A stretch of DNA of 64,000 nucleotides, taken from contig JBDRMG010000047.1 in the NCBI GenBank assembly GCA_043812495.1, positions 43,771 through 107,770 of the forward strand, given 5' to 3'. The notes under the pieces were generated by a model. That model was not told the origin of the DNA. It did not search any database and saw only the letters and a list, made by a program, of their open reading frames with translations. The first letter of the stretch is position 1; every line of letters starts with the position of its first letter. Position numbers and translations under genes: made by a program. The stretch comes from Candidatus Omnitrophota bacterium (GTDB lineage Bacteria > Omnitrophota > Gorgyraeia > Zapsychrales > JBDRMG01). Below, in pieces: positions 26,480-64,000 of the stretch.

Positions 26480-26489
26480 TTCTGCTTCG

Positions 26490-27088: not shown

Positions 27089-27322
27089 ATGATTAAGCTC
27101 AGCAAACGATCGACCATCTATTTTGACCCGCAAGTGCATAAAATTCTTAAATATAAAGCTATCGAAAGCTCACGTTCCGTCTCAGAGATTGTCCATGATG
27201 CGATCTTGCACGAATTAGCCGAAGACAAAGAGGATTTGGAAGCCTTTTCCAAACGCGCCCATGAGCCGACCGTATCTTTTGAAGCCTTGTTAAAAGAGCT
27301 GAAATTAGATGGCAAAATATAA
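27089..27322 (+). CDS. Ribbon-helix-helix (CopG/ParD-like) antitoxin
   Basis: 77 aa RHH-like N-terminus (TIYFDPQVHKILKYKA…SVSEIVHDAI). Overlaps the downstream toxin gene. Confidence 0.7.
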   Translation: MIKLSKRSTIYFDPQVHKILKYKAIESSRSVSEIVHDAILHELAEDKEDLEAFSKRAHEPTVSFEALLKELKLDGKI

Positions 27323-27569
27323 GATTGAGATTAAAAAAAGCGCTGTTAAAGAAGTCAAACAGCTTCCCGCCAAGGATATTAAGAAAATCCTGAAGAAAAT
27401 TATGGACCTCGGAGATGATCCCCACCCGCCGGACAGCAAGAAATTATCCGGTCATGATCGATATCGCCTTCGCTACCGGCATTATCGAATTCTTTATGAA
27501 ATTGTCGAAGATATTCTCATTATTTATGTTGTTAGAATCGGACATCGAAAAGATATTTACAGGAAGTAA
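27309..27569 (+). CDS. RelE/ParE-family toxin
   Basis: 86 aa with the RelE/ParE C-terminal signature (YRLRY…RILYEIVED…IYVVRIGHRKDIY). Overlaps the antitoxin by 14 bp. Confidence 0.75.
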   Translation: MAKYKIEIKKSAVKEVKQLPAKDIKKILKKIMDLGDDPHPPDSKKLSGHDRYRLRYRHYRILYEIVEDILIIYVVRIGHRKDIYRK

Positions 27570-29984: not shown

Positions 29985-30535
29985 CATATTCTGCTTCGCC
30001 CAAATGTCCTTCGACTTTCGCTCCATTAGAGCGAGAGTCGAACCATTTTCACGTTTGGGCTTCGCAGGAATTATCCGCCTTACATTAATCGGGCTTGACC
30101 ATGCGGGCGGAATCTCGCCGAAGCATGCTTACGCATTCTCCTACAGGCAAGCCCACAGCCCTCTTGCCGAATTCAAGATTCGCCTCTGGCGAGCTGCGAA
30201 GGCGGATAAAATCTGGCCTCGCTGACTTGCCATTTGGAAAAAATCGGTTATACTTTAAATGCGGATAAATCCGCAAAACTATGCCACGGAAAAATGTAAA
30301 ACTTTCCTCCGTGGCATTTTTATTCTACTTCGCCGAATACCCTGCTGCTTGTTGCGGGGATAAAGGCGAAGTAGAACCCTACGAAGCTCCCAAACGAGTT
30401 CTGCGAAGCTTTAGCGAAGCAGAACGAAAGTTTTGGAGCGTAGTAGGGTTGGGTATTCGGTCCTCCTTCGCCAAGGCTTCGGAGGGATTCTGCGAAGCTT
30501 TAGCGAAGCAGAACTTCAAAGAATGAAACATCCAA
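29985..30535. repeat. Dense palindromic repeat region of the TTCG-hairpin superfamily, including a duplicated ttctgcgaagctttagcgaagcagaac unit
   Basis: ttctgcTTCgcccaaa…tttgggcTTCgcaggaa. The 28 nt unit occurs at 30396 and 30488. Fragments of the 115 nt element are also present. Confidence 0.65.
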
Positions 30536-33082: not shown

Positions 33083-33110
33083 TTGACAAAAATATTTTCA
33101 ATGGTATAGT
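33083..33110 (+). promoter_or_regulatory. Consensus sigma70-like promoter (TTGACA, 16 bp, TATAGT) directly upstream of repeat element copy 2
   Basis: ttgaca at 33083-33088 and tatagt at 33105-33110. Confidence 0.5.
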
Positions 33111-33122
33111 GATAATAATTTT

Positions 33123-33236
33123 ATTCTACTTCGCATAAGCAATGGAAAAATAGTATATGCTTCGTAGAATATTCTCTGCCGAATAATTCTCCGAAGCCTA
33201 TACTATCTTTCTCTATTGGTAAGGCGAAGGAGAATA
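33123..33236 (+). repeat. About 115 nt two-hairpin element (copy 2 of 3)
   Basis: About 90% identical to 18011-18126. Followed at 33299-33329 by an aaggacggcc…ggccgtcctt hairpin. Confidence 0.7.
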
Positions 33237-33335: not shown

Positions 33336-33528
33336 CAATGAGACCATGATTTATGGAGCAAAGCGCCCGCCAATTTTTTAAATTTTTAGCGAGGTCTCGC
33401 CAATTCGATAAAATCGAATTGACGGAACATAAGTCATAAGGTCGAATTGACCCAGCCCGCCATTGATTCAGTGGCGGGCTGGGATAAAAAAAATACAAAT
33501 ATAATATTTCATCTAATAGGACAATGAT

Positions 33529-35046
33529 ATGAAAAAAATCGGTTTTGATAATGAAAAATATTTGAAAGAGCAGGCGCAAGCCATTTTGGAGAGGGTCAAG
33601 CAGTTTGACAATAAACTCTATCTGGAGTTCGGCGGTAAGCTTTTGTTTGATTATCATGCGGCTCGTGTTTTGCCGGGATTTGACCCCAATGTCAAGATGC
33701 GGTTGTTGAAGCAGCTCAAAAATGATGCGGATATTATTTTATGTATTTATGCGGGGGATATCGAACGAAAGAAAGTCCGTGCCGATTTTGGAATTACCTA
33801 TGATGCGGATGCCTTGAAATTGATCGATGATTTAAGAGACTGGGGCATTGATGTCTGCGCGGTTGTGATTACGCGCTTTGAGAATCAACCCGCCGCGACC
33901 ATTTTCAAAAATAAATTACAACGCCAGGGCACCAAGGTCTATACGCATCCGTTTACAAAAGGATATCCGACGGATGTCGATCTGATTGTCAGCGAGCAGG
34001 GTTACGGCGCCAACGAATACATCAAAACAAAACACGGCTTGGTCATTGTGACAGGCCCCGGGCCGGGAAGCGGAAAACTCGCGACTTGCCTGTCCCAGAT
34101 TTACCATGAATATCAAAAAGGCGTCAAAGCCGGTTATGCAAAATTCGAAACATTTCCCATCTGGAACTTGCCTTTAAAACATCCGGTGAATGTCGCTTAT
34201 GAATGCGCCACGGCCGATATTAAAGATTTCAACATGATCGATTCGTTCCACTTGGAAGCTTATCATCAAACAACGGTCAACTATAACCGGGACGTCGAAG
34301 TCTTTCCGGTCTTAAAAAGAATTCTAACTAAAATCATGGGCGAGGATGCGGTTTATAAATCTCCGACGGATATGGGGGTTAATCGGGCCGGTTTTGGCAT
34401 CATTGATGATGAGGCTATTCGCGAAGCATCCAAACAGGAAGCGATCAGGCGATATTTTAAATACGGCTGCGAATATTCCATGGGTTTGGTGGATAAGGAA
34501 ACCGTTGAACGCGCAGAATTATTGATGAAGGAAATGGGCGTTGCTATCGAAAACCGAACAGTTGTAAAGCCTGCGCGAGAGGCCGCCGAACAAGCTCGAG
34601 AAAAAGGAAAAGGAAACGAAGGCATTTTCTGCGGAGCCGCCATAGAGTTGCGTGACGGAAAGATTATCACGGGGAAGAATTCGCCTCTGATGCACGCGGC
34701 CTCCAGTCTCATCCTCAATGCCCTCAAGGACCTGGCCGAAATTCCGGACAAAATCCATCTATTGTCGGAAAATATTATCGGGTCCATATCCAACCTTAAG
34801 AAAGATGTGCTCAAGGCCAAAACATTGAGTTTAGACTTAGACGAAGCCTTGATCAGCCTCAGCATCAGCGCGGCCACCAATTCCACCTCTCAGTTAGCGA
34901 TAGAAAAATTAAAGGAATTGCAGGGATGCGAGGTTCACATTACGCATGTTCCGACGCCGGGTGATGAAGCAGGCTTAAGGCGACTCGGCGTGAATCTGAC
35001 CTGTGATACCAATTTTACGTCCAAAAGTTTTTTTGAAATCTCCTAA
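33529..35046 (+). CDS. DUF1846 / UPF0371-family protein
   Basis: 505 aa. The N-terminus [15 protein letters not shown]… and size are typical of UPF0371 proteins. Confidence 0.6.
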
Positions 35047-35269
35047 TCGACAACTGTAATGAAATATTATAATTGTATTTGCTTAATCCCCAGCCCGCCA
35101 CTGAATCAATAGCGGGCGGTGTCAATTCGGCCTTATGACTTATGTCGTCCGCCACAGAAACAATGGCGGACTCCATAAATCATGGCCTCATCGATAAGCG
35201 AAAGAGGAAGATATGCCAAGACGCAATGATATTCACAAAGTGCTTATAATCGGATCGGGACCCATTATT
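35011..35269 (+). repeat. Direct repeat copy 1 (about 258 bp): DUF1846 3' end, intergenic REPs and the first 19 codons of carB
   Basis: Near-identical to 37494-37751. It carries one extra T near its left end and synonymous differences in the carB codons. Confidence 0.85.
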
Positions 35270-36104: not shown

Positions 36105-37268
36105 ATGGAAGAATTCATTTTTGATTTAAGTGTTGTTCTCGTTGGTGCAGCTATTTTATCCTTCTTGGCTGTTATCTTAAAGCAACCAATAATAATTGCT
36201 TATATCGTATGCGGAGTATTGGTTGGTCCTTGGGGAATCGGTTTGATTAAACATGCCGAATTTATAGAGATGATTGCACATCTTGGAATAACATTGCTTC
36301 TTTTTCTGGCAGGGCTTTGTTTGCATCCTCAAAAACTCGTCATGTTATTTAAAAAAACCACACTTGTTACTCTCGGCAACTGTTTAGCCTCGTTTCTTAT
36401 AGCCTTTCTTTTTGCTCTCATATTCCGTTTTGGAATTATGGATAGCCTCTGCATAGGTCTTGCGTTAATGTTTTCGAGTACTATATTAACTGTCAAGTTA
36501 CTTCCCACAACGAAGTTGCACCAGCAGAGAATGGGTGCTGTTTGCATAGGTATTTTGATTATGCAGGATTTATTGGCTATATCTGTGCTTGCGTTTATTC
36601 GGTGTTTAGATGCACCTCAAGGGGTCATGATTAACTTTGGTTTACTGATTATTAAGCTTTGTGTATTTATCGGAATTTTAGTTTTATTTGAACAATTTGT
36701 ACTAAGAAAAATTATGCATAAGGTCGAACGTTTTCATGAAGCGTTATTTATATTGGGATTGGCATGGTGTTTTGGGATAGCAAGCATTTCAAACCACATG
36801 GGACTTTTTTATGAAACAGGGGCCTTTTTTGCTGGCGTCGTATTAGCTAGGCACCGAATTTCGCTATTTATATCTGAAAGCTTGAAACCGCTGAGAGATT
36901 TTTTCTTAGTACTGTTTTTCTTTACTTTGGGAGCAAGGCTCGATTTTCTGGTGATGAAAGGTATCTTGATTCCAGCGGTACTCTTAGCGACGGTATTTTT
37001 AGTTATTAAACCATGGCTATTTAAAAAGTTCTTTATATTAACTGGCGAACAGACTGCTTTTGCCAAGGAAGCTGGAATACGGCTAGGGCAATTGAGTGAA
37101 TTTTCTTTATTAGTTGCGCTTTTAGCATTTGAATTAGGCCATATAAGTAGCGGTGCATCTCAACTCATTCAACTCGTCACCATTCTTACCTTTATAGCTT
37201 CAAGCTATATTGTGGTCTTCAAATATCCTACTCCAATTGGGGCAACAGAGAATTTGATTAAGGATTGA
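36105..37268 (+). CDS. Cation/proton antiporter (CPA family, Na+/H+ exchanger-like)
   Basis: Polytopic membrane protein with a GVLVGPWGIGLI-type motif and the TM topology of Na_H exchanger-family proteins. Confidence 0.65.
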   Translation: MEEFIFDLSVVLVGAAILSFLAVILKQPIIIAYIVCGVLVGPWGIGLIKHAEFIEMIAHLGITLLLFLAGLCLHPQKLVMLFKKTTLVTLGNCLASFLIAFLFALIFRFGIMDSLCIGLALMFSSTILTVKLLPTTKLHQQRMGAVCIGILIMQDLLAISVLAFIRCLDAPQGVMINFGLLIIKLCVFIGILVLFEQFVLRKIMHKVERFHEALFILGLAWCFGIASISNHMGLFYETGAFFAGVVLARHRISLFISESLKPLRDFFLVLFFFTLGARLDFLVMKGILIPAVLLATVFLVIKPWLFKKFFILTGEQTAFAKEAGIRLGQLSEFSLLVALLAFELGHISSGASQLIQLVTILTFIASSYIVVFKYPTPIGATENLIKD

Positions 37269-37493: not shown

Positions 37494-37751
37494 AATTTTA
37501 CGTCCAAAAGTTTTTTGAAATCTCCTAATCGACAACTGTAATGAAATATTATAATTGTATTTGCTTAATCCCCAGCCCGCCACTGAATCAATAGCGGGCG
37601 GTGTCAATTCGGCTTTATGACTTATGTCGTCCGCCACAGAAACAATGGCGGACTCCATAAATCATGGCCTCATCGATAAGCGAAAGAGGAAGATATGCCA
37701 AGACGCAATGATATTCACAAAGTTCTCATTATCGGATCAGGCCCCATTATT
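37494..37751 (+). repeat. Direct repeat copy 2 (about 258 bp), providing the intact carB1 start
   Basis: See copy 1. Confidence 0.85.
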
Positions 37752-40940: not shown

Positions 40941-41307
40941 AATTTGAAAATCATAGAGTCTTCAATGGCCTGGAGCCGAAAAGTATCTTGACAACCCACA
41001 AGCGTAATTGTATACTGCCTTCAGGTTAAACAAAATTTTTGCTGAACGAGCCCACGCGTGATAAGGAAAGTGATTCTGGGCGTTGAAGTCCGGCTTTACC
41101 GCCAAGGTATTGTCGGATTTTTTATTGGTTCGACTCGCTTTGTCCTTCGACAAACTCAGGTTCCGCTCGCTCACCACACTCGGAAAATGAATACCACGGG
41201 CATGCCCGTGGATGGATACCGATTCTCGAAGGGTCGATCGAAGATTGAAAAGAAATTAATCAGGGACCACGGGCATGCCCGTGGGGATCCAGGGAAAAAA
41301 TAGAACG

Positions 41308-47117: not shown

Positions 47118-47125
47118 GTAAATTT

Positions 47126-47168
47126 ATCCGTCTTCGTCAAATACGTTAAGTATTTGACGAAGACGGAT
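47126..47168. other. Perfect 19 bp-stem hairpin (atccgtcttcgtcaaatac-gttaa-gtatttgacgaagacggat) immediately after purF
   Basis: Read directly from the sequence. It contains the cttcg/cgaag motif. There is no T-run, so it is more likely a repeat-family member than an intrinsic terminator. Confidence 0.5.
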
Positions 47169-47234
47169 CAAATACAATAAGTATTTCCTGCTAGCAGGCA
47201 GGGACTTAAACGGGTTAATGAGAAGGAAGGAATA

Positions 47235-48875
47235 ATGAGCAAGTTCATCTTTGTGACAGGGGGGGTTGTGTCCAGCTTAGGCAAAGGGATTGCCTCGTCA
47301 TCCATTGGAAAGCTCCTGGAGGCCAGAGGCCTCAAGACAACCATTATCAAATGCGATCCTTATATTAATGTTGATCCGGGAACCATGAACCCTTTTCAGC
47401 ATGGCGAGGTTTATGTAACGGATGACGGCGCCGAAGCAGACCTGGATTTAGGTCATTATGAGCGCTTTACCAATGCCAAGATCGGCAAGGAGAATAATAT
47501 CACCACGGGAAAGATTTATTTTTCTGTCATCACCAAAGAGCGCCGCGGGGATTATTTGGGAAAGACCGTTCAGATCATTCCTCACATCACGGATGAAATA
47601 AAGAATTGCATCAAGAAAGTGGCCCATGACCGGGACGTGGACGTAACGATTGTGGAAATCGGCGGAACCGTAGGCGATATCGAAAGCCTTCCTTTTTTGG
47701 AGGCCATTCGTCAACTGCGCTGGGAATTGGGCGCTGAGTACGCGATCAATATCCACGTGACCTTGCTTCCGTTTATCCGTTCGGCCGGCGAGCAGAAAAC
47801 CAAGCCGACGCAGCACAGCGTCGGGCGCCTGCGCGAAATCGGTATCAATGCCGATATCCTTCTTTGCCGTACGGAAAGACCCATCAAAAAAGAGCAAAGA
47901 GATAAAATCGCCCTGTTTTGCAATGTCGATAAAGAGGCCGTGATTGAGGCCGCGGACGTAAAACACATTTACGAAGTTCCCCTGGCCCTCAAAAAACAGC
48001 AATTGGATGATTTGATCTTAAGAAAGCTAAATATCAAGCGGGAAGAAAAAGATCTGAAGCATTGGCAGGAATTTGTTATGCAAAGGCTCAAAAATCCTTC
48101 CAAAGAAGTCAAAATTTCCGTAGTCGGAAAATATATCACCCTGCCCGATGCCTACAAATCTATTTATGAGGCCTTGGCGCACGGCGGAATCGCCAATGAT
48201 GCCCGGGTCAATATCAATAGGGTCGATTCGGAGGATATTGAAAAAGGAAATATCGAGAAATACCTGAAAGGATCGGACGGTATTCTGATTCCGGGCGGGT
48301 TTGGAACACGGGGCATCGAAGGAAAAATCAAAGCCGTTGAATTTGCGCGGGAAAACAATATTCCGTTTCTGGGGATTTGCCTGGGGATGCAATGCGCGAC
48401 GATTGAGTTTGCGCGCAATATTGTCGGATTGAAGAATGCCAATTCAACCGAATTTGATAAAGACACGAAATCTCCGGTGATTAGCCTTTTGGAAGAGCAA
48501 AAGAAAGTGAAAAATATGGGGGCCACCATGCGCCTGGGGGCCTACCCTTGCAAATTGGCGAAGAAATCCAAAGCCATGGCCGCCTACAAAAAGGAAAATA
48601 TTTCCGAACGCCACCGTCATCGTTATGAATTCAACAACGAATACAAAAAGATGATGGAAAAGAAGGGGATGGTGTTCTGTGGTATTTATACCAATAAAAG
48701 TTTAGTTGAAATTATTGAACTCAAGGACCATCCCTGGTTTGTTGCCTGCCAATTTCATCCGGAGTTTAAGTCAAAACCCGACAAAGCCCATCCTCTCTTT
48801 GACCATTTCATCCGCGCGGCCGTGGATAAGCAAGATAAAACAAAAGACCTAAGCATTTTTTGCTTTTTGGCTTGA
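47235..48875 (+). CDS. pyrG: CTP synthase
   Basis: The N-terminus [19 protein letters not shown] is canonical PyrG. The C-terminal GATase has GICLGMQ. Confidence 0.95.
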
Positions 48876-48904
48876 TCTATGTATAATAAATAAGACTTAA
48901 AAAG

Positions 48905-49125
48905 AATATTTGCGCGGTTCTGCTTCGTCCGCCATTGATGCATTGGCGGACTTCGCAGCAACATTTTGAAATAAAGAATTAATTTGGAAGCGTTAGCGGC
49001 TTCGAAGCTTCCAAATGATTCTGCTTCGTTAAATGCTTACGTATTTAACTTCGCAGGAATCAGTCCTTCGAAGCTCTAATGTCAAAACATTAGAGCGAAG
49101 AAGACTGAAAATTTTGAAGCGAAGA
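48905..49125. repeat. Hairpin array upstream of tRNA-Leu (CTTCG-flanked REP plus gattctgcTTCg…cTTCgcaggaatc-type hairpins)
   Basis: ttctgcttcg-tccgccattgatgcattggcgga-cttcgcagcaa, then gattctgcttcgttaaatgc…atttaacttcgcaggaatc, then ccttcgaagctctaatgt…acattagagcgaagaag. Confidence 0.65.
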
Positions 49126-49127
49126 AG

Positions 49128-49209
49128 CGCGGGTGGCGGAATTGGTATACGCGCACGTTTGAGGGGCGTGTGGGGCAACCCGTGTGGGTTCAAGTCCCAC
49201 CCCGCGCAT
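49128..49209 (+). tRNA. tRNA-Leu(GAG): tRNA-Leu (anticodon GAG), class II with a long variable arm
   Basis: Hand-folded. Acceptor GCGCGGG/CCCGCGC. Anticodon stem CACGT/GCGTG with loop TTGAGGG. Variable arm GGGGCAACCC. T-arm GTGGG-TTCAAGT-CCCAC. CCA is not encoded. Confidence 0.7.
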
Positions 49210-49214
49210 TAGAT

Positions 49215-49330
49215 TTTAAATAACTTAGAGCGAAGCGACATAAGTTATTTAAATTTTTATCCCGCCTCGCGGCGAAGCGTACCCGTTAACGCTCGGCGCT
49301 GAGGCGAACGGCATGAAAATTAATTTTAGG
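49215..49330. repeat. Hairpin repeats downstream of tRNA-Leu
   Basis: aacttagagcgaagcgacataagtt and cgcctcgcggcgaagcg…cgctcggcgctgaggcg-type palindromes. Confidence 0.5.
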
Positions 49331-53735: not shown

Positions 53736-53789
53736 AATTTCAGGAGCCTTATTTATTCTCCTTCGCCTTACTAATGGAACATAATGGTA

Positions 53790-53945
53790 CAGGCTTCGGA
53801 GAATTATTCCGATGAGAATATTCTACGAAGTTCTCCTTCGCCAAGGCTACGGAGGAATCCTTCGAAGTCCGCCAATGAAACAATGGCGGACGAAGAAGGA
53901 CATATACTATTATTTCTATTGGTTATGCGAAGTAGAATAGGATTC
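53790..53945 (-). repeat. Third copy of the 115 nt element (minus strand) in the 5' leader of the REC-GGDEF gene. It is interrupted by about 72 nt of nested hairpin insertions next to CTTCG/TTCG motifs.
   Basis: The reverse complement reads tattctacttcgcataaccaatagaaataatagtatatg, then the inserted hairpins, then ttcgtagaatattctcatcggaataattctccgaagcc…ggcgaaggagaata. Confidence 0.65.
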
Positions 53946-55463
53946 GCCTTTACTTTGGACAACGGGTATTTGGAAATGAAAAACAGTTCCTTGGCCGACT
54001 TGGCTTGTGACCCAGATTTTACCTTGATGGGCTTCAATAATTTTCTTGACAAGAGCTAAGCCCAAACCCGTTCCTTTGACGTTTTGATTGATTTCGTTTT
54101 CAACCCGGTAAAATTCATTAAAAAGTTGCGACAAATCTTCTTGTTTAATCCCGATGCCGGTATCACAAACGGTAAAATAGACGTTATAGTTTTCTCGTTG
54201 AATACGGATGGTGATTTGCCCGTTTGCAGGAGTAAACTTGATGGCATTGCTTAACAGATTGATCAGGACCCGCTCAAATTGACTTCGGTCAATGAAAACC
54301 GACGGAAGGTTGGGTTCGATTTGCGTGCTAAATGTGATATTCTTTTCTTTCATCTGCGGCAGGAGAAGATCGCGAATATAATCGAGCAGTTCGGCGATAT
54401 TTTGCTCTTGGACCTTCATCTCGACCCGGCCGGATTCTATGCGGGAAATATCCAAAAGATCGTTAATGAGGCTGACAAGATTATCGGAATGTTTATCGAT
54501 CTTGGCTAAGCGCTGCTTGACTTCCTCGGGAATTTCTCCCATTTTACCCGTAATCAAGATAGACGCGTATCCTTTGATAGAGGTCAGGGGTGTGCGTAAT
54601 TCATGAGAAACAGCGGAGACGAATTCAGACTTGGCTTTGCTGATGGTCTTGACTTCTTCCAGGGCCCTGGCTAGCTCACTGGTACGGTCTTGGATTTTTG
54701 ACTCCAGTTCTTGGCGGGACCGATAAACTTGCTCAAACAATTGAGCGTTTTCGAGAGACTGTCCAATTTGATGGGCCAAGATGGAAATGAGCTCCTCGTC
54801 TCCTTCGGTAATGGGGGGCCGTTCGCTGCCGTTGCCGACAAAAAGGATTCCGATCATTCCGTCCTGCGAAAGGATGGGAATGCAGATAAAATGGTCCACC
54901 TTGAAAAATTGAGCAATTTTTTCTTTCTTCTGTTTAGGCGAAGTCGCTGATGAAAATGTTCGTCCCTCCCGTAAGGATGTATAAATAGAATTTTCTTTTG
55001 TTAGATGATGAAGGGCTTCGAGGGCTTCTTCTTTCGAAAGACCTAAGGCCAGTCGGGGATAAAGTTCTTTTTTCTCATCCAGCATGCAAACGGTGGTCTT
55101 CTCAAAACCCAATTCGGTGACAAGAGACCTGGCCAGGCGTTGGAATATCTCATCCGCGTCGAGCGTTGTGCTGATTAAACGAGATGTTTTTTGCAGAGCA
55201 TTTAAAGCGGCTAATCGCTTATCCAGCTCTTCCTGCGTTTTATTGAGCTCAAGATCTGTTTTAACGATCAATTTGGCCTGCTCGTCTAAATCATCGAAAG
55301 AACGTTTTAGTTTGTTGATTTGGAGGCGAAGCTGTCGAGCCTGCTCTGCTTTATTGAGAAAGGCTAAGACGAACACGGTAATCGTCACGAGGCCCAAAAA
55401 ACCAAAAATGCCGGCCGAATTGTTGATCTGGATTTGATTAAAGAAATTCGTCAGGATATCCAT
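53916..55463 (-). CDS. Sensor histidine kinase with GAF domain
   Basis: H-box HELRTPLTSIKGY. HATPase N/G boxes. N-terminal TM plus coiled-coil plus GAF-like region. Confidence 0.8.
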   Translation of the reverse strand: MDILTNFFNQIQINNSAGIFGFLGLVTITVFVLAFLNKAEQARQLRLQINKLKRSFDDLDEQAKLIVKTDLELNKTQEELDKRLAALNALQKTSRLISTTLDADEIFQRLARSLVTELGFEKTTVCMLDEKKELYPRLALGLSKEEALEALHHLTKENSIYTSLREGRTFSSATSPKQKKEKIAQFFKVDHFICIPILSQDGMIGILFVGNGSERPPITEGDEELISILAHQIGQSLENAQLFEQVYRSRQELESKIQDRTSELARALEEVKTISKAKSEFVSAVSHELRTPLTSIKGYASILITGKMGEIPEEVKQRLAKIDKHSDNLVSLINDLLDISRIESGRVEMKVQEQNIAELLDYIRDLLLPQMKEKNITFSTQIEPNLPSVFIDRSQFERVLINLLSNAIKFTPANGQITIRIQRENYNVYFTVCDTGIGIKQEDLSQLFNEFYRVENEINQNVKGTGLGLALVKKIIEAHQGKIWVTSQVGQGTVFHFQIPVVQSKGESYSTSHNQ

Positions 55464-56953: not shown

Positions 56954-57031
56954 GGCCCCGTCGTCTAGCCTGGTCCAGGACAGATGGTTCTCAGCCATCA
57001 GACGCGGGTTCAAATCCCGCCGGGGCTACCA
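56954..57031 (+). tRNA. tRNA-Glu(CUC): tRNA-Glu (anticodon CUC) with encoded CCA; likely integration site for the downstream island
   Basis: Hand-folded. Acceptor GGCCCCG/CGGGGCU with a G1-U72 wobble pair. D-arm like E. coli tRNA-Glu (UCGUCUAG…AGGAC). Anticodon stem GATGG/CCATC with loop TTCTCAG. T-arm GCGGG-TTCAAAT-CCCGC. Confidence 0.7.
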
Positions 57032-57336
57032 GAAATCTGCCTCTCTTTAGGGTAAGAGAGATTGTTTGGGCCCCGCCATTGTTCCAATGGCGGGGCCCTT
57101 TTAACGCTTTCCCCCTCAAAAGGTTACAACATTCCGTTTATTAGCTCACCAAAGTTATTTAATTACAAAGCACCTGCTTTAAAATCCTCTCTGAAATAAT
57201 CGGCTTTATCTCATAAAATGCCGAAAACATCTCACATATAATGGCTCGTATATAATCAAAAATTTGTTCTTATTTGGAAGATTTTCGACGAGTTTGAGGG
57301 CATTATATAGGAATTTTCAATCAGAGAGGAATTCTA

Positions 57337-58959
57337 TTACTTCTCGGCAGGATTTTTGAAAAGCACTTGCCACATTTCTTTTTGTTTTGCCCAGCTCATT
57401 TGGCGGGAGATTTCATTGATTTTGTATTCGGGGACGGAAAAGAGACTTTCATTTTCGTCTAAAAGGATTTCCTCTTGAATGTCCGGCGCAAGCAAAAGAA
57501 GATTCATGACAACGTAAACTTTGATATTGCTCATGTTCAAACAATTGGCCATTTGCTTCAAATCTTTGACCCGGCCTTCGGATATTACCTTTTGTATCTG
57601 ATGAGCCAGAATTAAGTTTTGCTTTAACTTCGGTTCTTTGTTGATTTTCTCTTGGTTTAAAAATGAAGGCTGATTTTTAAGATCCTTTATATCAACCGGA
57701 AACTCATATTTTCTGATACCTTCTCTCAATGCGATCTCCAAAATCTGTTTTTTCCAATCATAACTTGCCTCTTTAATGATTGACTTTAGGATGGGAATTT
57801 TTTCTTTAAGCGTCAACAATTCCCACGTCTTTGCGTCAAGCTTAGGGAAGGACGCCGTGGCTCTCAAAAGCTCGACGATCTTTTCTTCAATCTTCCTGGC
57901 ATTGACCAGGCGTACAGGGCAGCTTTGATAGCCTCGCTTAATGGCATTTATGCAAAGATAATAGTGATATTTGTATTTGTCTTCTTTGACTTGATACGTA
58001 AAATACATCGCGCAGTTGCAGGATTTGCAGCGTAAGATTCCACTTAACAAGCCCACATGTTTATTTGTCTTGGCCATGCTCCATTCGGGTTTGTTTTTGG
58101 CGAGCATCTCTTGAGCCTTTTGAAAGATTTCCTCGGAAACAATAGCTTCTTGTTCTCCCGGATACAGTATATCCAGATGCTGAACTTTACCCATATAAAG
58201 GACATTCCTGAGAAGGCGTTGGACGCTGGAAATCTTAAAGGTAATACCGCCGAAACTTTTTCCCTTTTTGGATTCGTGCAATTTTGTCAAATACCCCTTC
58301 TCATTAAGAATTTTTGTAACAGCCATGATGGAGCATTTTTCAAGGTATAAGTCAAATATCTCCCGTACGATTTCAGCTTCTTTGGGATTGATGATGAGCT
58401 TGCGTTCTTTCTTATCGACATCATAACCTAAGGGAGGGTGCCCGCCGAGCCACTTACCTTTTCTTTTAGCAGCGCACATCTTGTCACGGGTGCGCTCCGA
58501 GATAATTTCGCGTTCGAATTGGGCGAAGGACAGAAGAATATTAAGTGTAAGCCTTCCCATCGAGTTTTGCGTATTAAAATGCTGAGTTACAGATACAAAA
58601 GTAATATTATTCTCTTCGAATATGGACAACAATTCGGCAAAATCAAGAAGCGAGCGAGAGAGACGGTCAACTTTGTAGACAACGACACAGTTAACCGTTC
58701 CGGCTTTAATGTCAGCCATAAGCTTTTGAAGAGCGGGCCTGTCTGTGTTGGCGCCTGTAAAACCACCGTCGTCATATTTTTCTGGCAGGCAAATCCAACC
58801 GGAATTCTTCTGGCTGGCAATGTAGCTTTCACAGGATTCACGCTGGGCATCCAGCGTAGTAAAGTCACGCTCAAGCCCATCACTGATTGATTTCCGCGTA
58901 TAAATGGCACAGCGGATAATCGGTTTTTCTTGTTGTTCCTCTTTTTGCTTAACGTTCAT
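57337..58959 (-). CDS. Large serine recombinase
   Basis: N-terminal resolvase catalytic domain (AIYTRKS…YKVDRLSRS), a recombinase domain and a Cys-rich zinc ribbon (CKSCNC…C). Confidence 0.85.
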   Translation of the reverse strand: MNVKQKEEQQEKPIIRCAIYTRKSISDGLERDFTTLDAQRESCESYIASQKNSGWICLPEKYDDGGFTGANTDRPALQKLMADIKAGTVNCVVVYKVDRLSRSLLDFAELLSIFEENNITFVSVTQHFNTQNSMGRLTLNILLSFAQFEREIISERTRDKMCAAKRKGKWLGGHPPLGYDVDKKERKLIINPKEAEIVREIFDLYLEKCSIMAVTKILNEKGYLTKLHESKKGKSFGGITFKISSVQRLLRNVLYMGKVQHLDILYPGEQEAIVSEEIFQKAQEMLAKNKPEWSMAKTNKHVGLLSGILRCKSCNCAMYFTYQVKEDKYKYHYYLCINAIKRGYQSCPVRLVNARKIEEKIVELLRATASFPKLDAKTWELLTLKEKIPILKSIIKEASYDWKKQILEIALREGIRKYEFPVDIKDLKNQPSFLNQEKINKEPKLKQNLILAHQIQKVISEGRVKDLKQMANCLNMSNIKVYVVMNLLLLAPDIQEEILLDENESLFSVPEYKINEISRQMSWAKQKEMWQVLFKNPAEK

Positions 58960-58967
58960 AATGATTT

Positions 58968-59486
58968 TTAAAGGTTAAAGAAACAATACCCGTTCCAATG
59001 CGCGCCGGTAATTTCTTTGGCAATGGCCGAGAGATGTTTATAGATTTTTCCGTTATGCTCAAAGCCGTCTTCCAAAACCTTAACCTCTATTTTCTTGCCC
59101 TTATATTCCTTCATGATGATGCTTCCCGGAATAGGGAGGCGGTTGTCCCGCGTGCGCCCTTTTGTTTTCCCGTCAGCTTCAGGGCTTGGCTTTAGCCTTA
59201 AGGCTTTATTATTAACAGGGTCGTAGGCTTTTATAAATTCATTAAGCCTTGTTTGCGCATTTTCTGATAAACTGCCGTATTCAAGCTCTTGAAGGCGGTA
59301 GGCAAGCCTTCGTATCAAAAAGACCTTATTATCTGAAGTGGCTTTCTGGCCGTCAAAAAGCGCCCTATACTCTTTCTGGAGATCAGGAACCGCCATATTT
59401 TCAAAGGCTTTTATTCTTTCTTCAATTATCTCTGTCATCGGATTTTCCCTTACGCATATAGGGCCATACAATTCGAGAGATAGCAA
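58968..59486 (-). CDS. Recombinase-associated small protein (DUF2924-like)
   Basis: About 155-172 aa ORF immediately downstream of, and co-oriented with, the serine recombinase. It resembles proteins usually found next to such recombinases. The start is possibly MTEIIEE at 59438. Confidence 0.45.
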   Translation of the reverse strand: MLSLELYGPICVRENPMTEIIEERIKAFENMAVPDLQKEYRALFDGQKATSDNKVFLIRRLAYRLQELEYGSLSENAQTRLNEFIKAYDPVNNKALRLKPSPEADGKTKGRTRDNRLPIPGSIIMKEYKGKKIEVKVLEDGFEHNGKIYKHLSAIAKEITGAHWNGYCFFNL

Positions 59487-59542
59487 GGGATATTTGAAGC
59501 TTTTGAAGTAAGAATAAAATAATTGACAAGGTGTATGTCTAG

Positions 59543-60184
59543 GTGTATGCTATTGTATGTATGAAAGTAATGACAATGTCAAGTAGAGAATTAGCAGCCA
59601 TTCGCGAAATTCGCAATTCCCTCATGCATAGAGGAAGAGTCCCGTCTATTCGAGAGTTGATGAATTCATTAGGGTATCGATCCCCACGCTCTGCGGCAGT
59701 AATTTATGAGAATTTAATTGAAAAAGGTGTTTTGCGTCGAAAGCGTGACGGTAGTTTTCAATTTGTAAAAGGACTCGAAGACGATACGATTCGAGCACAA
59801 ACTGTCGATGTACCTTTAGTGGGAAGTATTTTTTGCGGCGTTCCGATACTTGCAGAAGAAAATGTCGAAGCTATGATTCCAGTTTCGACTAAATTGGCCA
59901 AGCCATCGAATAAATATTTTTTGTTAAGAGCTAAAGGCGATTCGATGGATCAAAAGGGCATTAACGATGGCGATTTACTTTTAATTCGACAACAGGCAAC
60001 AGCAGAAAATGGTGATATAGTGGTAGCGTTGATTGATGATGAGGCAACGGTGAAGGAGTTTCATGCAAACGGAGAAACGGTCATTTTGAAACCGCACTCG
60101 CGCAACAAGAAACATCAACCGATTGTTTTAACAAGGGATTTTCAGGTACAAGGAGTTATGATAACAGCAATACCGAATGTATAA
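59543..60184 (+). CDS. Second LexA-family (S24 peptidase) repressor, island-encoded
   Basis: LexA-type N-terminal DNA-binding domain (…IRELMNSLGYRSPRSAAVIYENLIEKGVL). C-terminal GDSM…K peptidase domain. The last 60 aa are similar to chromosomal LexA (IVVALIDDEATVK). Confidence 0.75.
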   Translation: MYAIVCMKVMTMSSRELAAIREIRNSLMHRGRVPSIRELMNSLGYRSPRSAAVIYENLIEKGVLRRKRDGSFQFVKGLEDDTIRAQTVDVPLVGSIFCGVPILAEENVEAMIPVSTKLAKPSNKYFLLRAKGDSMDQKGINDGDLLLIRQQATAENGDIVVALIDDEATVKEFHANGETVILKPHSRNKKHQPIVLTRDFQVQGVMITAIPNV

Positions 60185-60265
60185 AAAATAATTTTAACCA
60201 GATTTCAATGTGTAGCATCCCTTTTCAATTTCCCCTCTGCACATTGGTAATGAGAGGAGAAAGAT

Positions 60266-62002
60266 ATGAGTTTAGAAATAACAACAAGCGTTGGGGATGC
60301 TAAACAGAATAATCAATTAATTGAAGGAGAGGCGGTAAAATTGAATTCAGTTTTAGTTGAAACGAGCAATCTGATCGATGATCGTAATCGACGTATAAAA
60401 GATTTTTTTATTGATTCGGTTAAACAAGGTCATTCTTCAGAATCAATTGTCGATCTTTTTGAGCGTTCTTTAGAGAAATTTGAGCGCAAGGATATGGGGC
60501 AGTACTATACTCCCAAGACCATAGTTGAGTACATAATTTCTCAGCTCAACATTCGACAAGATTCAAAAATCTTAGATCCTTCCTGTGGTTGCGGTTCATT
60601 TCTTTTAACTGTTTTTGACAGATTCAAAGAAAAACATGGTACGGAATTCTTGAAAAATATTTATGGGGTTGATATTAACGAAGACGCCGCAAATATGACA
60701 CGTCTTTGTTTGCACATGAAGGCAGGCTTTAATAGAAAATATATTCCTGTAATCAAACAAAACATAAAATCAGGAAACAGCCTAGTTTCAAATTCATTAC
60801 TGAATAAGCAAGCGTTTAATTGGAAGGATGAATATGCGGAAGTTTTGAATGAAGGTGGTTTTGACTTTATTATAGGGAATCCGCCGTATGTAACTTTAAG
60901 AAACTCCAAGGATTTTGATTCTTCGGAATCAATATATAGGCAAATTATCGGTGGGCCGGTCAATGCCGCGACTCTTATGATCGGACGTTCACTCGAATTG
61001 TTAAGGGATCAAGGTGTGCTTGCATTTTTATTGCCGAAATCTATCCTTTATGTCGATTCCTATCAGAAATTGCGTGACTATTTAAGTCACAATACAGATA
61101 TTTTACAGATTTATGATCTAGGCTCAAAATTTAAGGATGTCCGAGGAGAACAATTTATTCTTTTTGTTAAAAAGAAAGCAAATACTATCAATGGTAGTGT
61201 AAAAATTTGTGTGTTTACTGACAGAAACAAGTCGATGACGCAGCAGACGCACATAGACATTTACCACAAAGATCTTGTTCGTATGCCGAGATTTTATACA
61301 TACGAATTACAGAAGCATTATAGCTTAATTTCCAAGCTGGCTGGGATTGGATCAGAGTTGAGGGAAATCGTGAATGATAAAATATTTAGAGGGTTGCCTA
61401 TCGGTGGAAATCGTGCCGAACAGAAAAGTAATACCGGATACGAAAAAGTAATCCGAGGAAGGGATATAGCGAAATTCAGATTAAAGCCTCTGCCATTTAT
61501 GAAGAGAGATCTTCTGGAAAGGCAGAGTAAAATAAAAATAAATGAAATTAGACAAAAGAAGGTAGTCTTACAAAATATTTTTTCATCAGAGGCAGGCGTA
61601 ATAGCGGCTTATGATCCTAATAAATTATTAAACCTTGATACCGTAACAAACATCATTGTTAAGAGTGATGATGAGGGGAAATATTTCCTTGCATTATTAA
61701 ACTCAAAACTAATCAATTTCTATATTATGTATGCGTTATTTAATAGATCAAAATTGACGATGCACCTTGATAAATCTTACATTGGCTCAATCCCGATTAT
61801 TCCCAATCCGAGTCAATCTGTTCTTAGCAGATTAAAAGGGATTGTCGACTTGCTGGATAAAACAGAAGATAAAGGAGTACAGAAGCAAAAAAATAAAGAG
61901 ATTGATAAAATTGTCTATGACCTTTATGATTTAAAGAAACAAGAGATCCAATTAATAGAAGATGCTGTAAATAAGATGCTTTCTCCAAAAAGTCTATGGT
62001 AA
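60266..62002 (+). CDS. Gamma-class N6-adenine DNA methyltransferase (Eco57I/TaqI-like) with C-terminal target-recognition domain
   Basis: Motif I ILDPSCGCGSFLL. Motif IV IIGNPPYV. About 250 aa C-terminal extension. Confidence 0.8.
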   Translation: MSLEITTSVGDAKQNNQLIEGEAVKLNSVLVETSNLIDDRNRRIKDFFIDSVKQGHSSESIVDLFERSLEKFERKDMGQYYTPKTIVEYIISQLNIRQDSKILDPSCGCGSFLLTVFDRFKEKHGTEFLKNIYGVDINEDAANMTRLCLHMKAGFNRKYIPVIKQNIKSGNSLVSNSLLNKQAFNWKDEYAEVLNEGGFDFIIGNPPYVTLRNSKDFDSSESIYRQIIGGPVNAATLMIGRSLELLRDQGVLAFLLPKSILYVDSYQKLRDYLSHNTDILQIYDLGSKFKDVRGEQFILFVKKKANTINGSVKICVFTDRNKSMTQQTHIDIYHKDLVRMPRFYTYELQKHYSLISKLAGIGSELREIVNDKIFRGLPIGGNRAEQKSNTGYEKVIRGRDIAKFRLKPLPFMKRDLLERQSKIKINEIRQKKVVLQNIFSSEAGVIAAYDPNKLLNLDTVTNIIVKSDDEGKYFLALLNSKLINFYIMYALFNRSKLTMHLDKSYIGSIPIIPNPSQSVLSRLKGIVDLLDKTEDKGVQKQKNKEIDKIVYDLYDLKKQEIQLIEDAVNKMLSPKSLW

Positions 62003-62796
62003 TAAAAAGTTCGACAAGATACAACGAGTTAACAGGTAAAGAATGGCTTCAATATTCCTTCAGCATTTGGCGGGATATTCGCAAAAGCGATGATGAAAGG
62101 AATATTAAGCATCCCGCCATGTTTCCTTCCGCACTTGCCGAGAAAGTTATCAAGACTTATACTCGTGAGAACGATGCCGTGTTGGATCCGTTTATGGGTA
62201 TTGGCAGTACCATTATTGCCGCATACAAACAGAATCGAAAGGCAATCGGCATAGATTTATCAAAGGAGTTTATAAGCTTAGCAAACCGACGCTTGAAAGA
62301 GCTGAAGGGAGCTTTAAATAATAAAAAAATAAAAGTCATTAATGCAGATGCTCGGCACTTGAAAGAACATTTGAAGGATCAAGAAATTGATCTTTGCGTT
62401 ACTTCTCCGCCTTATTGGGATATTCTCAATATGCGAAGAACGGCTGATGGAAAAACAATAAAGAACTATGGTAAGGATAAAACCGATTTAGGAAATATCG
62501 ATAATTATGAACAATTTTTGTCTGAATTAATTCAAATCTTTTCAGGCGTATATGATGTTTTGAAGACCGGTGGCCATTGCGTGGTTGTGGTTATGGATAT
62601 CAGAAAAAAGGATAAATTTTATCCGCTTCATTCTGATCTAGCCGAAAAAATGAAAAGCATTGGCTTCACCTTTGAAGATATAATCATCTGGGACAGACAA
62701 CATGAATATAACAATATGAAACCATTGGGCTGGCCCTCGGTGTTCCGGGTCAACAAAGTCCATGAATATGTTTTAATTTTTAGGAAACGTAAATAA
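61996..62796 (+). CDS. Beta-class DNA methyltransferase (N4-cytosine or N6-adenine; the SPPY motif favours N4C)
   Basis: VTSPPYWD motif, then AdoMet motif FMGIGST, in the permuted beta-class order. Confidence 0.7.
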   Translation: MVIKSSTRYNELTGKEWLQYSFSIWRDIRKSDDERNIKHPAMFPSALAEKVIKTYTRENDAVLDPFMGIGSTIIAAYKQNRKAIGIDLSKEFISLANRRLKELKGALNNKKIKVINADARHLKEHLKDQEIDLCVTSPPYWDILNMRRTADGKTIKNYGKDKTDLGNIDNYEQFLSELIQIFSGVYDVLKTGGHCVVVVMDIRKKDKFYPLHSDLAEKMKSIGFTFEDIIIWDRQHEYNNMKPLGWPSVFRVNKVHEYVLIFRKRK

Positions 62797-63752
62797 TGAA
62801 TAATCCAGAATTGGCATATCTTTTAGGCATGCTTGCAGGAAAGGGTTTCATTAAGAGAGGAGAATCAACAACTGACATCTTAATTGAAATTCCTCACAAA
62901 AATTTAATTGTAGAGGATAAAGATGCGCAGCTTTCCGTCAAGGCGAGCTTAGATGACTTCCGAAACAACATCGAACCTTTAATTAGCGTTTCCGTTAGAA
63001 CTATCCAAGAGCGTATAAGGACAATCATCAAATTTTCTAAGCTCAACGAAGATTTTTTGATAAGGGAAATTAATCGTCATTATAGGAATAAAAGCGAGTG
63101 GAAAGATTTTAGAATTCCTAAGGATATTTTCTCAGCATCTTCAGATATAAAAAAAGAATTTTTGATTGGGCTATCCGATGTCACAGCCCATATTGGTCAT
63201 GGGGGCGAGGCATATGGTTACTCTCATGCTCACAGAGTGTTTGTGGAAATACCAGTGAATTGGTACTTGGCCGTTGATATCTGTAATTTATTGGCTGATT
63301 TGGATATTCCTGTTCAGAATATTGATTGGGGTCATCCAAATATGAGGGATGGCAATCTAAAAAAATATAGAGAGGGCAAAAAGAATTTTTGGAACAAGGA
63401 ACACCAGATTAAGATTTTTGCTGAGCTTTATGAAAAGATTGGATTCAGAATTATCCATAAAATGGAAATCTTAAAGAAGTTGGCTGATAAAAACCGTAGC
63501 GAATGGGATAAAGATCGAAGAAAAAAGGCGTCACGCGCTAAAAATGAGAAGACTAAAGAAAAATTCCTTTCGCAAGTTGGAAAGGTTGAAGAACAGCATA
63601 AGAAGTTCTATTGGGATGTTAAGAGGCTTGTAAGGAAGTCCAGGTCAGCTCATCCGATGGAAAAGAGTGAGTTGCTGCCTCCGGAAATCAGAGGAAAACA
63701 TTTTAATCATTGGACCGAGATTGCAGAAATCTTAGGTTATAAACCACGATAG
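62796..63752 (+). CDS. Hypothetical protein with an N-terminal LAGLIDADG-like motif lacking the catalytic acidic residues
   Basis: LAYLLGMLAGKGF near the N-terminus and a weaker second copy, FLIGLSDVTAHIG. Asp is replaced by Ala/Lys. Follows the two methyltransferases in the same operon. Confidence 0.4.
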   Translation: MNNPELAYLLGMLAGKGFIKRGESTTDILIEIPHKNLIVEDKDAQLSVKASLDDFRNNIEPLISVSVRTIQERIRTIIKFSKLNEDFLIREINRHYRNKSEWKDFRIPKDIFSASSDIKKEFLIGLSDVTAHIGHGGEAYGYSHAHRVFVEIPVNWYLAVDICNLLADLDIPVQNIDWGHPNMRDGNLKKYREGKKNFWNKEHQIKIFAELYEKIGFRIIHKMEILKKLADKNRSEWDKDRRKKASRAKNEKTKEKFLSQVGKVEEQHKKFYWDVKRLVRKSRSAHPMEKSELLPPEIRGKHFNHWTEIAEILGYKPR

Positions 63753-63755
63753 GCA

Positions 63756-64000
63756 TGAGCAAGCAGGAAGAAAAATTATATCCGGATATCGAAGAATGGT
63801 TAAAAGTATATTTAACTGAGAAATATTCGACCAATAAAATTATTACGACTCGCAAGACTTCTAGGCAGAATTTAGATGTTTGCCTTAAGAGCCTTGGAAT
63901 CGAGATCAAAGAAGCCATTGGATTATCGATTAAGGTTGACATCGTTGGTATCCTTGTGCGAGGGCAAAAAGTCAGATTGGTTTTTGTTGAGGTAAAAGAT
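63756..64000 (+). CDS. Partial CDS (runs off the window) with a PD-(D/E)xK-like nuclease motif; candidate restriction endonuclease
   Basis: The translation MSKQEEKLYPDIEEW…KVDIVGILVRGQKVRLVFVEVKD contains D…EVK spacing typical of PD-(D/E)xK. Not in the ORF track because it is truncated. Confidence 0.4.

Follow-up and report, generated by a model that had tools for sequence, protein, structure and literature searches.

Short palindromic elements with a CTTCG foot in an Omnitrophota genome and related hairpin cassettes with GIY-YIG genes at tRNA 3′ ends

Hairpins between pyrG and tRNA-Leu

A stretch of 64,000 nt from contig JBDRMG010000047.1 of a Candidatus Omnitrophota bacterium (GCA_043812495.1), hereafter the window, was analysed for a family of hairpins in which the motif CTTCG stands in the same orientation on both arms of the stem. 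The hairpin under study (focal hairpin) lies downstream of pyrG (47235-48875), whose product has its best matches in the genome collection among Omnitrophota metagenome-assembled genomes (MAGs; 69-77% identity). Four hairpins at 48917-49106 sit between a TATAAT sequence (48882-48887) and a tRNA-Leu gene (49127-49208), i.e. upstream of this tRNA gene, and stretch its leader from about 10 to about 240 nt. The GAA form of the hairpin is the TTC form on the opposite strand, and the two are a single family.

48917-48962, plus strand: focal hairpin, TTC form, with the foot gTTCTGC-TTC-G ... C-TTC-GCAGcAAc around a genome-specific repetitive extragenic palindromic (REP) core, tccgccattg-atg-cattggcgga
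48986-49017, plus strand: hairpin atttggaagc...gcttccaaat with CTTCGAAG in the loop, belonging to a 215-nt block that is extra relative to locus L202 of a related genome
49017-49061, plus strand: TTC-form hairpin gATTCTGCTTCG-ttaaatgcttacgtatttaa-CTTCGCAGgAATc, doublet partner of the hairpin at 49062-49106
49062-49106, plus strand: GAA-form hairpin aGTCcTTCGAAG-ctctaatgtcaaaacattagag-CGAAGAAGACt

The focal hairpin has an outer stem (gTTCTGC/GCAG(c)AAc), TTC triplets at 48924-48926 and 48952-48954, an inner stem (GTCCGCCA/TGGCGGAC) and a 9-nt loop. The 3 × 3 internal loop belongs to the minimum-energy fold, with -12.9 kcal/mol as DNA (z -4.4) and -23.3 kcal/mol as RNA (z -5.3).

Abundance of the hairpins in the window

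The initial annotation had proposed a superfamily of hairpins with a symmetric TTC/TTC mismatch and had considered the pattern too regular for chance, and both proposals were borne out. With an outer stem of at least 4 pairs and an inner stem of at least 2 pairs, 17 hairpins of the form stem-TTC-stem-loop-stem-TTC-stem (8 TTC and 9 GAA forms) were found, against 1.79 ± 1.18 (maximum 6) in 200 dinucleotide shuffles. C..G flanks surrounded the triplet in all 17 copies but in 0.06 hairpins per shuffle. The density was 0.266/kb in the window and 0.0022/kb in 1.39 Mb of other genomes, a difference of about 120-fold, and the strict pattern TTCTNCTTCG-N4-34-CTTCGNAGAA occurred 8 times with 0.00 expected.

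Among hairpins with the same triplet unpaired in a 3 × 3 loop, TTC/TTC and GAA/GAA were the most frequent combinations, with TCG/CTC level with TTC/TTC at 6. When only the outer stem TTCTN..N'AGAA was required, CTTCG/CTTCG (4) and CGAAG/CGAAG (4) were the sole recurrent inner 5-mers, and this outer-stem-only search returned no fully paired CTTCG/CGAAG version of the ATTCTN foot in the window. CTTCG/CGAAG was overrepresented 4.0-fold in intergenic DNA (68 observed, 17 expected). All 17 copies were intergenic or at gene ends, and they displayed no strand bias (8 TTC and 9 GAA forms on the plus strand) despite a uniform GC skew; both forms were present within the same transcription units.

Anatomy of the units and doublets

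The conserved foot reads ATTCT-N-CTTCGC ... GCTTCG-N'-AGAAT (also written ATTCTNCTTCGC...GCTTCGN'AGAAT), with a variable core between the two halves. It is palindromic except for CTTCG, which is in direct orientation on both arms, hence the unit has a polarity; the "mismatch" is best described as a CTTCG direct repeat that gives polarity to an otherwise palindromic unit. Cores include the REP core (units at 48917 and 53858), ctgcaa...ttgcag (26479), ttaaat...atttaa (49017), a core of about 27 nt in three doublets of 112–115 nt, and minimal 2-bp cores, CTTTAG and CCAAGG, at 30398, 30462 and 30488; very short forms of 26–28 nt exist. Units were arranged singly, as inverted doublets (TTC form, spacer, GAA form) and in nested clusters.

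18011-18125, plus strand: doublet copy 1, with the TTC-form unit 18011-18061, a 14-nt spacer and the inverted GAA-form unit 18076-18125; folds as one long hairpin
33122-33235, plus strand: doublet copy 2, with units 33122-33171 and 33186-33235
53751-53939, minus strand: doublet copy 3, with a nested 70-nt insertion; supplies the end of a kinase gene
53831-53900, minus strand: nested insertion (hairpin pair) in doublet copy 3, delimited by alignment to copies 1 and 2
26479-26522, plus strand: TTC-form hairpin that shares its first base, an A, with the stop codon of the open reading frame (ORF) 25634-26479
29988-30071, plus strand: TTC-form hairpin attctgCTTCGcccaaa...tttgggCTTCGcaggaat, with a second hairpin nested in its loop
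30318-30513, plus strand: nested cluster with minimal GAA forms at 30398-30425 and 30488-30513 (CTTTAG) and a minimal TTC form at 30462-30485 (CCAAGG)
30376-30452, plus strand: outer GAA/GtA hairpin of this cluster, enclosing 30398-30425

The layout with a TTC form on the left and an inverted GAA form on the right was found at 18011-18125, 33122-33235, 49017-49106 and 53751-53939. The arms of a doublet are inverted copies of each other, i.e. terminal inverted repeats. As single strands, doublets adopt a single long hairpin structure (-40 and -47 kcal/mol; z -5.8 and -7.9); there, TTC from one unit is paired with GAA from its partner, and the "mismatch" disappears. The consensus of nine copies from different contigs is likewise a long hairpin, with 39 pairs, 3 of them with compensatory changes. 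Doublets of 112–115 nt numbered three in the window and at least seven in the metagenomes, and their flanks were unrelated between contigs.

Near-consensus sigma-70-type promoters (11 of 12 positions) were noticed at 17977-18005 and 33083-33110, ending 6–12 nt before doublet copies 1 and 2, the upstream regions of which are otherwise unrelated. The 115-nt doublets were also considered as small RNA genes; this was rejected, as flanks and promoters were not conserved at nine other copies and no Rfam match was obtained.

Evidence for insertion

Comparison of paralogues revealed that doublet copy 3 differs from copies 1 and 2 by an additional hairpin pair of 70 nt, which interrupts the sequence exactly between ..GTATATG and CTTCGTAGAAT. 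One member of the pair (53858-53900; tccttCTTCGtccgcca..tggcggaCTTCGaagga on the minus strand) has the REP core and is the same CTTCG-REP-core-CTTCG module as the focal hairpin with a different outer stem; the other is ttcctcCGtAGccttggCGAAGgagaa (53831-53857).

Orthologous sites were compared with L202, a relative from GCA_053939265.1 (identity of 83% for pyrG, 60% for the kinase and 74% for the regulator). The spacer between pyrG and tRNA-Leu(GAG) is 50 nt in L202, where TATAAT lies about 12 nt before the tRNA gene, and 251 nt in the window, where the additional sequence consists of the four hairpins at 48917-49106. The kinase and regulator genes are separated by 43 nt in L202, by no spacer in the more distant syntenic locus L112, and by 180 nt of hairpin elements in the window. 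The final 7 codons and the stop codon (53916-53939) of the GAF histidine kinase gene (53916-55463, minus strand) are derived from doublet copy 3, and the L202 orthologue of this gene ends differently. Between LexA and PilZ lie 115 nt in L202, compared with about 1 kb in the window. In the window genome the elements rewrite gene ends, and they confound ORF calling and assembly.

CTTCG-foot hairpins were absent from 82 kb of the three closest relatives. A set of 80 pyrG loci, with six Omnitrophota MAGs among them, held practically no copies, and 1.3 Mb from other genomes held about none. The initial annotation had implied that the triplet would be kept across copies in related genomes. It is kept wherever the family occurs, both among copies and in unrelated metagenomic genomes, but the family itself is absent from the nearest relatives sampled. 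The paralogue alignment, the empty orthologous sites and the patchy distribution show that the CTTCG-foot units are inserted or mobile DNA and not conserved RNA motifs. The possibility that TTC or CTTCG is a target duplication within an "empty" palindrome ATTCTNCTTCGN'AGAAT was rejected: neither the window nor 2.2 Mb of collected loci contained such an empty site, and the nested junctions did not fit.

The REP core is a separate repeat

A search of the window for the half-site GCCCGCCAYTG with up to 1 mismatch gave 17 half-sites (1.82 expected), which form 13 hairpins. The initial annotation had counted at least 10 REP copies; every position it gave was recovered, and copies at 37575 and 37629 were added. 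Its statement that many are bracketed by CTTCG was too strong, as 4 of the 13 carry brackets: CTTCG...ctCGAAG (paired) at 23210 and 26673, CTTCG...CTTCG at 48920, and CGAAG...CGAAG at 53858. The GCCCGCCA core is a separate genome-specific repeat; REP core and CTTCG foot are independent and are combined in only these four copies.

23207-23250, plus strand: REP core with paired brackets, cttCTTCGcccgccactaaatcgttggcgggctCGAAGtaaatt; identical copy at 26670-26713
4119-4159, plus strand: REP core without CTTCG foot, GCCCGCCACTGAATCAATGGCGGGC
446-495, 23107-23141, 33451-33483, 35089-35120, 35135-35183, 37571-37602, 37617-37665 and 57066-57100: further foot-less REP copies

Foot-less REP hairpins (4119-4159, 33451-33483, 35089-35183, 37571-37665) lie 20–70 nt upstream of the GS-III, DUF1846 and both carB-type gene starts, within the glutamine gene cluster, and there is a weak match to NsiR4 at 33431-33480 (27 bits, gathering score 40). 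A role of the core as a nitrogen-regulon RNA was considered and rejected, since relatives lack the core in front of these genes. A segment of about 180 nt occurs in two copies (35040-35230 and 37525-37700), each with two REP-core hairpins and a carB-type gene start; the first copy precedes a mere gene fragment, and the two are separated by a Na+/H+ exchanger gene (36105-37268).

Related cassettes at tRNA 3′ ends

Metagenomes were scanned with the pattern ATTCTNCTTCG-N4-34-CTTCGNAGAAT, and at least 120 loci were obtained; the metagenome counts given below apply to the matches listed. Among 98 distinct copies, N and N' were complementary in 72, with all four pair types used, the first inner pair was C-G in 70, and the cores measured 4–34 nt. 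A viral collection, which acts as a chance control, gave seven pattern matches, none of them a true hairpin, and on this ground a phage origin was rejected.

At least 29 hairpins lie at the 3′ end of a tRNA gene (offset 0 or -1), all in the TTC form on the tRNA sense strand. The hairpin's ATTCT begins on the terminal A of CCA or on the discriminator base, and at least 12 tRNA identities are represented. Complete cassettes have the order tRNA, left TTC-form hairpin, spacer or ORF, right GAA-form hairpin and an exact 12–21-nt copy of the tRNA 3′ end, the right hairpin being an inverted copy of the left (e.g. GGTCTNCGAAGCTTGCGAAGN'AGA). In 11 of the 33 tRNA genes trailed by hairpins, an exact copy of 9–16 nt of the gene's own 3′ end was found 60–500 nt downstream, directly after a GAA-form hairpin; in six other cases a further insertion intervenes before the copy. 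Cassettes without an ORF are 61–115 nt long and have the same ends as those with one; in the layout behind tRNA genes they measure 61–81 nt. The foot of the window hairpin at 49062-49106 is identical to a metagenomic right-end hairpin foot (GGTCTTCGAAG..CGAAGAAGACC).

Locus L112, which has the FIST-kinase-regulator operon and tRNA-Leu(GAG) in common with the window, carries two serial insertions, each with its own tRNA-end copy; hairpins lie behind its tRNA-Leu(GAG) and a truncated GIY-YIG gene in front. In the window, neither tRNA-Leu nor tRNA-Glu has a trailer hairpin or a duplicated end. The copy behind tRNA-Phe genes lacking CCA has no added CCA and was therefore derived from the gene and not from the mature tRNA, by which tRNA-primed reverse transcription was rejected as the source of the tRNA-end copies.

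Association with a small GIY-YIG nuclease gene

All ORFs of these loci were clustered. GIY-YIG was the only gene family specifically recurrent near the hairpins, in 15 of 120 loci compared with 1 of 80 controls. The protein has 80–100 (about 85) amino acids and is a stand-alone GIY-YIG domain (Pfam PF01541, E 3e-18) with conserved catalytic Tyr, Tyr-x-Gly, Arg, His-Asn and Glu residues; its closest solved relatives are UPF0213 proteins (1zg2, 1ywl) and SLX1. Named homologues are in Margulisbacteria, Patescibacteria and Gracilimonas.

In a reciprocal test, seven homologues were chosen by protein similarity alone. Each of the seven ORFs was preceded, at a distance of 30–200 nt, by a tRNA gene (Phe, Phe, Met, Leu, Gly), a tmRNA gene or a ...CCACCA end resembling that of a tRNA, and this RNA end was directly trailed by a C-TTC-G...C-T(T/A)C-G hairpin. 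Outer stems varied among the GIY-YIG loci (ATTCTN, CTCTC, CTA, CCAGA), with CTTCG constant. The layout occurs in Margulisbacteria, Patescibacteria, Gracilimonas and unlabelled contigs.

L089, L106, L118, L121, L132, L136, L146, L176, L188 and L190: GIY-YIG genes between inverted CTTCG hairpins behind tRNA or tmRNA
L206-L208, L211 and L221-L223: the same layout

Proposed origin of the CTTCG-foot hairpins

We consider the focal hairpin to be a short palindromic mobile element with a CTTCG foot, whose relatives are the GIY-YIG cassettes at tRNA genes and which would be mobilised in trans; a probability of roughly 0.55 is assigned to this reading. The insertions, the architecture of the units and the association with a nuclease gene are direct results of the comparisons described above: CTTCG-foot units have inserted into intergenic DNA and gene ends of this Omnitrophota lineage. 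The further steps are proposed. The full-length relatives of the units would be the cassettes exactly at tRNA or tmRNA 3′ ends, consisting of TTC hairpin, GIY-YIG ORF, GAA hairpin and tRNA-end copy. A GIY-YIG nuclease encoded elsewhere in the genome may recognise or cut the CTTCG foot and may thereby act in trans to mobilise copies that lack the ORF.

The SLX1/UvrC branch of the GIY-YIG fold cuts branched or bubbled DNA, and a cruciform with a 3 × 3 bubble would present such DNA to a nuclease of this type. The I-TevI nuclease domain, also of the GIY-YIG fold, needs CNNNG for cleavage (PMC12774661, PMC5009752), a motif that CTTCG fits. The idea in the initial annotation of a conserved DNA motif served by one machinery is plausible, as CTTCG is kept while cores and outer stems vary, in the manner of a recognised or cleaved motif; its suggestion of a RAYT as that machinery was not supported (see below).

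Free-standing GIY-YIG homing endonuclease genes, such as the T4 Seg genes, are likewise small selfish intergenic genes, and one of them, SegB, resides in the T4 tRNA cluster (PMC2330249). Known homing endonucleases, however, have 200–250 amino acids and a DNA-binding domain, whereas the hairpin-linked proteins are catalytic only; nor are homing endonuclease genes bounded by inverted hairpins or accompanied by ORF-less repeat families.

Several points weigh against the proposed origin. A search of the 64-kb window with 10 GIY-YIG proteins (tblastn) found no GIY-YIG gene, the sole match being weak (3e-4) and inside a Bro-N ORF; with no GIY-YIG ORF between the window hairpins, the window copies therefore correspond to ORF-less forms. 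The associated proteins are the catalytic domain only, with no evident DNA-binding domain, and we know of no GIY-YIG protein that acts as a bacterial transposase. The nuclease gene and the hairpins could merely occupy the same tRNA-trailer niche, or the hairpins could serve the mRNA of the GIY-YIG gene, and the strict sense orientation behind tRNA genes would also fit a role as RNA. The tRNA 3′-end copies (12–21 nt) exceed in length and variability what a classical transposase would leave, and no target-site duplication was seen at the nested 70-nt insertion; the proposal does not account for these features of the insertions or for the diversity of cores. In addition, the metagenome scan demanded the ATTCT...AGAAT foot, and most of its loci bear no taxonomic label.

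More tentatively, and with less confidence than in the proposed origin itself, the cassettes may represent undescribed minimal mobile elements of about 330–500 bp, coding for GIY-YIG only, with a CNNNG-type site twice per arm, and a GIY-YIG counterpart of RAYT/REPIN. Such cassettes would insert at tRNA and tmRNA 3′ ends across Omnitrophota-like genomes, Margulisbacteria, Patescibacteria and Balneolales, and their REPIN-like ORF-less derivatives, mobilised in trans, would have colonised the intergenic DNA of the window genome. The window feature is itself of the REP/REPIN/MITE kind (MITE, miniature inverted-repeat transposable element), and the GIY-YIG connection would be new if causal; the biology of REPINs and RAYTs is well documented. 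No paper linking GIY-YIG genes with palindromic repeats or bacterial tRNA 3′ ends was found in the incomplete literature searched, which is no proof of novelty.

Alternative explanations

An unlikely alternative, though the most probable of those considered, is that the hairpins are primarily RNA elements for tRNA-trailer processing, termination or mRNA end protection, with a protein-binding or nuclease-resistant UUC/UUC or GAA/GAA loop, and that their spread is secondary. All 29 tRNA-adjacent copies listed read UUC on the sense strand and begin exactly where CCA or the discriminator base ends the tRNA gene, and the window copies are all in untranslated regions or gene ends; the hairpins are stable as RNA, two doublets have near-consensus promoters directly upstream, and the four hairpins at 48917-49106 are between TATAAT and tRNA-Leu and so would belong to the tRNA leader. 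However, the same transcription units contain both orientations, the loops of which are chemically different. Orthologous sites in close relatives are without hairpins, so these are not required for the genes concerned, and the tRNA 3′-end duplications and nested insertions are DNA events. Furthermore, both window tRNAs are without a trailer hairpin, the promoters are not conserved at other copies, and no hairpin matched Rfam 15 at gathering score or at E ≤ 1. The sheared GAA/GAA RNA loop suggested by the initial annotation is accordingly not favoured as the primary function, given both orientations per transcript, the pairing within doublets and the absence from relatives.

Only a little less probable, but still improbable, is the mobilisation of REP/REPIN elements by an HUH transposase (RAYT), encoded at 8143-8805 or by another copy, which would cut single-stranded hairpins at or near CTTCG. 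This is the machinery that the initial annotation had put forward.

8096-8832, plus strand: Y1_Tnp/RAYT-like ORF (8143-8805) with its own hairpins (8096-8122, 8806-8832), unlinked to the CTTCG family

Because RAYTs are single-copy genes whose products act in trans, none need lie near most copies of the repeat, and the protein with HUH and Tyr motifs encoded by the ORF places a Y1_Tnp enzyme in the window. As in the REP/REPIN-RAYT systems of Pseudomonas and enterobacteria (PMC3116915, PMC3337134), the CTTCG hairpins are short imperfect extragenic palindromes that occur as singlets, inverted doublets folding as long hairpins (PMC3116915) and clusters, with lineage-specific expansion and an associated nuclease gene bracketed by inverted repeat copies. 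IS200/IS605 elements, too, use a subterminal hairpin plus a short conserved motif (guide and cleavage tetranucleotides) as recognition unit and insert with no target duplication, as seen at the nested insertion.

The ORF itself nevertheless scored 68 bits, below the NCBIfam RAYT cut-off of 80 (NF047646), and its flanking hairpins are two identical 27-nt copies of CCAATTACAAACCCGCATTGTAATT on the same strand (direct orientation), the only copies in the window and different from the CTTCG hairpins, with neither the CTTCG foot nor the GCCCGCCA core adjoining. In this it resembles an IS200/IS605-type element and not a RAYT accompanied by dispersed REP copies. No homologue was present in 0.72 Mb of hairpin-bearing loci among the matches listed, as opposed to GIY-YIG genes in at least 15 loci and in 7 of 7 reciprocal cases, and the TTC and GAA forms are without strand bias (8 and 9) under a uniform GC skew. 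The gene near the CTTCG hairpins encodes a GIY-YIG catalytic domain of about 85 amino acids, not HUH/Y1; the foot has a direct-repeat CTTCG on both arms; and the full-length cassettes reside at the 3′ ends of tRNA or tmRNA genes, where the tRNA end is duplicated. The two end hairpins of IS200/IS605 share one strand, whereas the CTTCG-family ends are inverted and not associated with the hallmark transposase.

Still less probable, the hairpins would be MITEs moved by a DDE transposase encoded elsewhere (e.g. IS630/Tc1-like, with TA duplication), the GIY-YIG gene being an unrelated passenger. The doublets have terminal inverted repeats and sharp boundaries, and their size (112–115 nt) and intergenic position recall the Correia elements of Neisseria and enterobacterial ERIC/IRU, which are intergenic, about 110–150 nt long, may have T/A flanks, are co-transcribed with neighbours and sometimes change gene ends. 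Most doublet copies read T|ATTCT...AGAAT|A, a possible TA duplication around TTCT...AGAA; however, the T...A could equally extend the palindrome by one pair, no duplication flanks the nested 70-nt insertion, and the left junction of tRNA-linked copies reads CA instead of TA. The terminal repeat of the CTTCG family, unlike those of Correia or ERIC/IRU, is itself a hairpin with a CTTCG/CTTCG internal loop and exists in single and 26–28-nt forms, and no matching DDE transposase was found: none recurred near the hairpins in the loci listed and none was among the window ORFs scanned.

Folded single-strand recombination sites for a tyrosine recombinase (integron attC, CTX-phage attP-like), with TTC/TTC as the unpaired central spacer, would share the conserved paired foot, second stem, variable tip and strand specificity, and tRNA 3′-end insertion with tRNA-end duplication is typical of integrase-mediated integration, but this is very improbable: the foot is ATTCTN/N'AGAAT with no R''/R' boxes (RYYYAAC/GTTRRRY) or R/L box consensus, there are no cassette arrays and no IntI, the metagenomic cassettes carry no integrase, and among the window ORFs scanned with Pfam there was no integron integrase or tyrosine recombinase, the only recombinase being a large serine recombinase of a separate element at tRNA-Glu.

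Other features of the window

The gene content of the window is a nitrogen/glutamine cluster comprising amt, P-II, GS-III, NadE, GOGAT, GDH, two carB-type genes, carA, purF, pyrG and DUF1846, together with two tRNA genes (Leu, 49127-49208; Glu, 56954-57031) and an element integrated at tRNA-Glu. From tRNA-Glu(CTC) at 56954 to 64000, a large serine recombinase gene (57337-58959, minus strand) is followed by DUF2924, a LexA-like repressor and two DNA methylase genes, and GC content drops to 0.36; the region is probably an integrated element. Two overlapping small ORFs of 77 and 86 amino acids (27089-27569), in a 1.6-kb gene-poor stretch, resemble by eye an antitoxin and a RelE/ParE-type toxin. 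The trailer of tRNA-Leu is similar to that in L103/L112.

Other repeats were also noted. The palindrome CCTGCCTTGCCGGCAGGCAGG and its variants (816-836, 47187-47203) occur as well in the unrelated metagenome loci L075, L095, L106 and L112, where they adjoin tRNA and GIY-YIG genes, and constitute a second widespread hairpin family. Hairpins with CGAAG or CTTCG in the loop or fully paired were found at 298-332, 26750-26782 and 49220-49250, at 26590-26607 and at 47123-47171; examples are RCAACTTATGgagCGAAGcgaCATAAGTTGY, cgtgagCGAAGctcacg and the perfect hairpin TTTATCCGTCTTCGTCAAATAC/GTATTTGACGAAGACGGAT. Further repeat pairs are ACCCCGCACCTTT/AAAGGTGCGGGGT, inverted and 22–48 nt apart (344-420, 851-920, 4042-4119), and CCACGGGTTTRCCCGTGG palindromes (26552-26637, 41190-41280).

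Conclusions

Few non-coding features of bacterial genomes are as common as short palindromic repeats, and to our knowledge their spread has so far been tied to one enzyme family, the HUH tyrosine transposases (RAYTs). Here, a repeat family with a REP-like population structure (singlets, inverted doublets and nests) is linked with a different, much smaller nuclease fold and with the 3′ ends of tRNA genes in several poorly known phyla. If the connection is causal, it would constitute a second, independent route to REP-like elements, the cassettes would be among the smallest conceivable autonomous mobile units, and the many genes of uncultivated bacteria that are annotated as "GIY-YIG nuclease family protein" (UPF0213-like) would gain a function.

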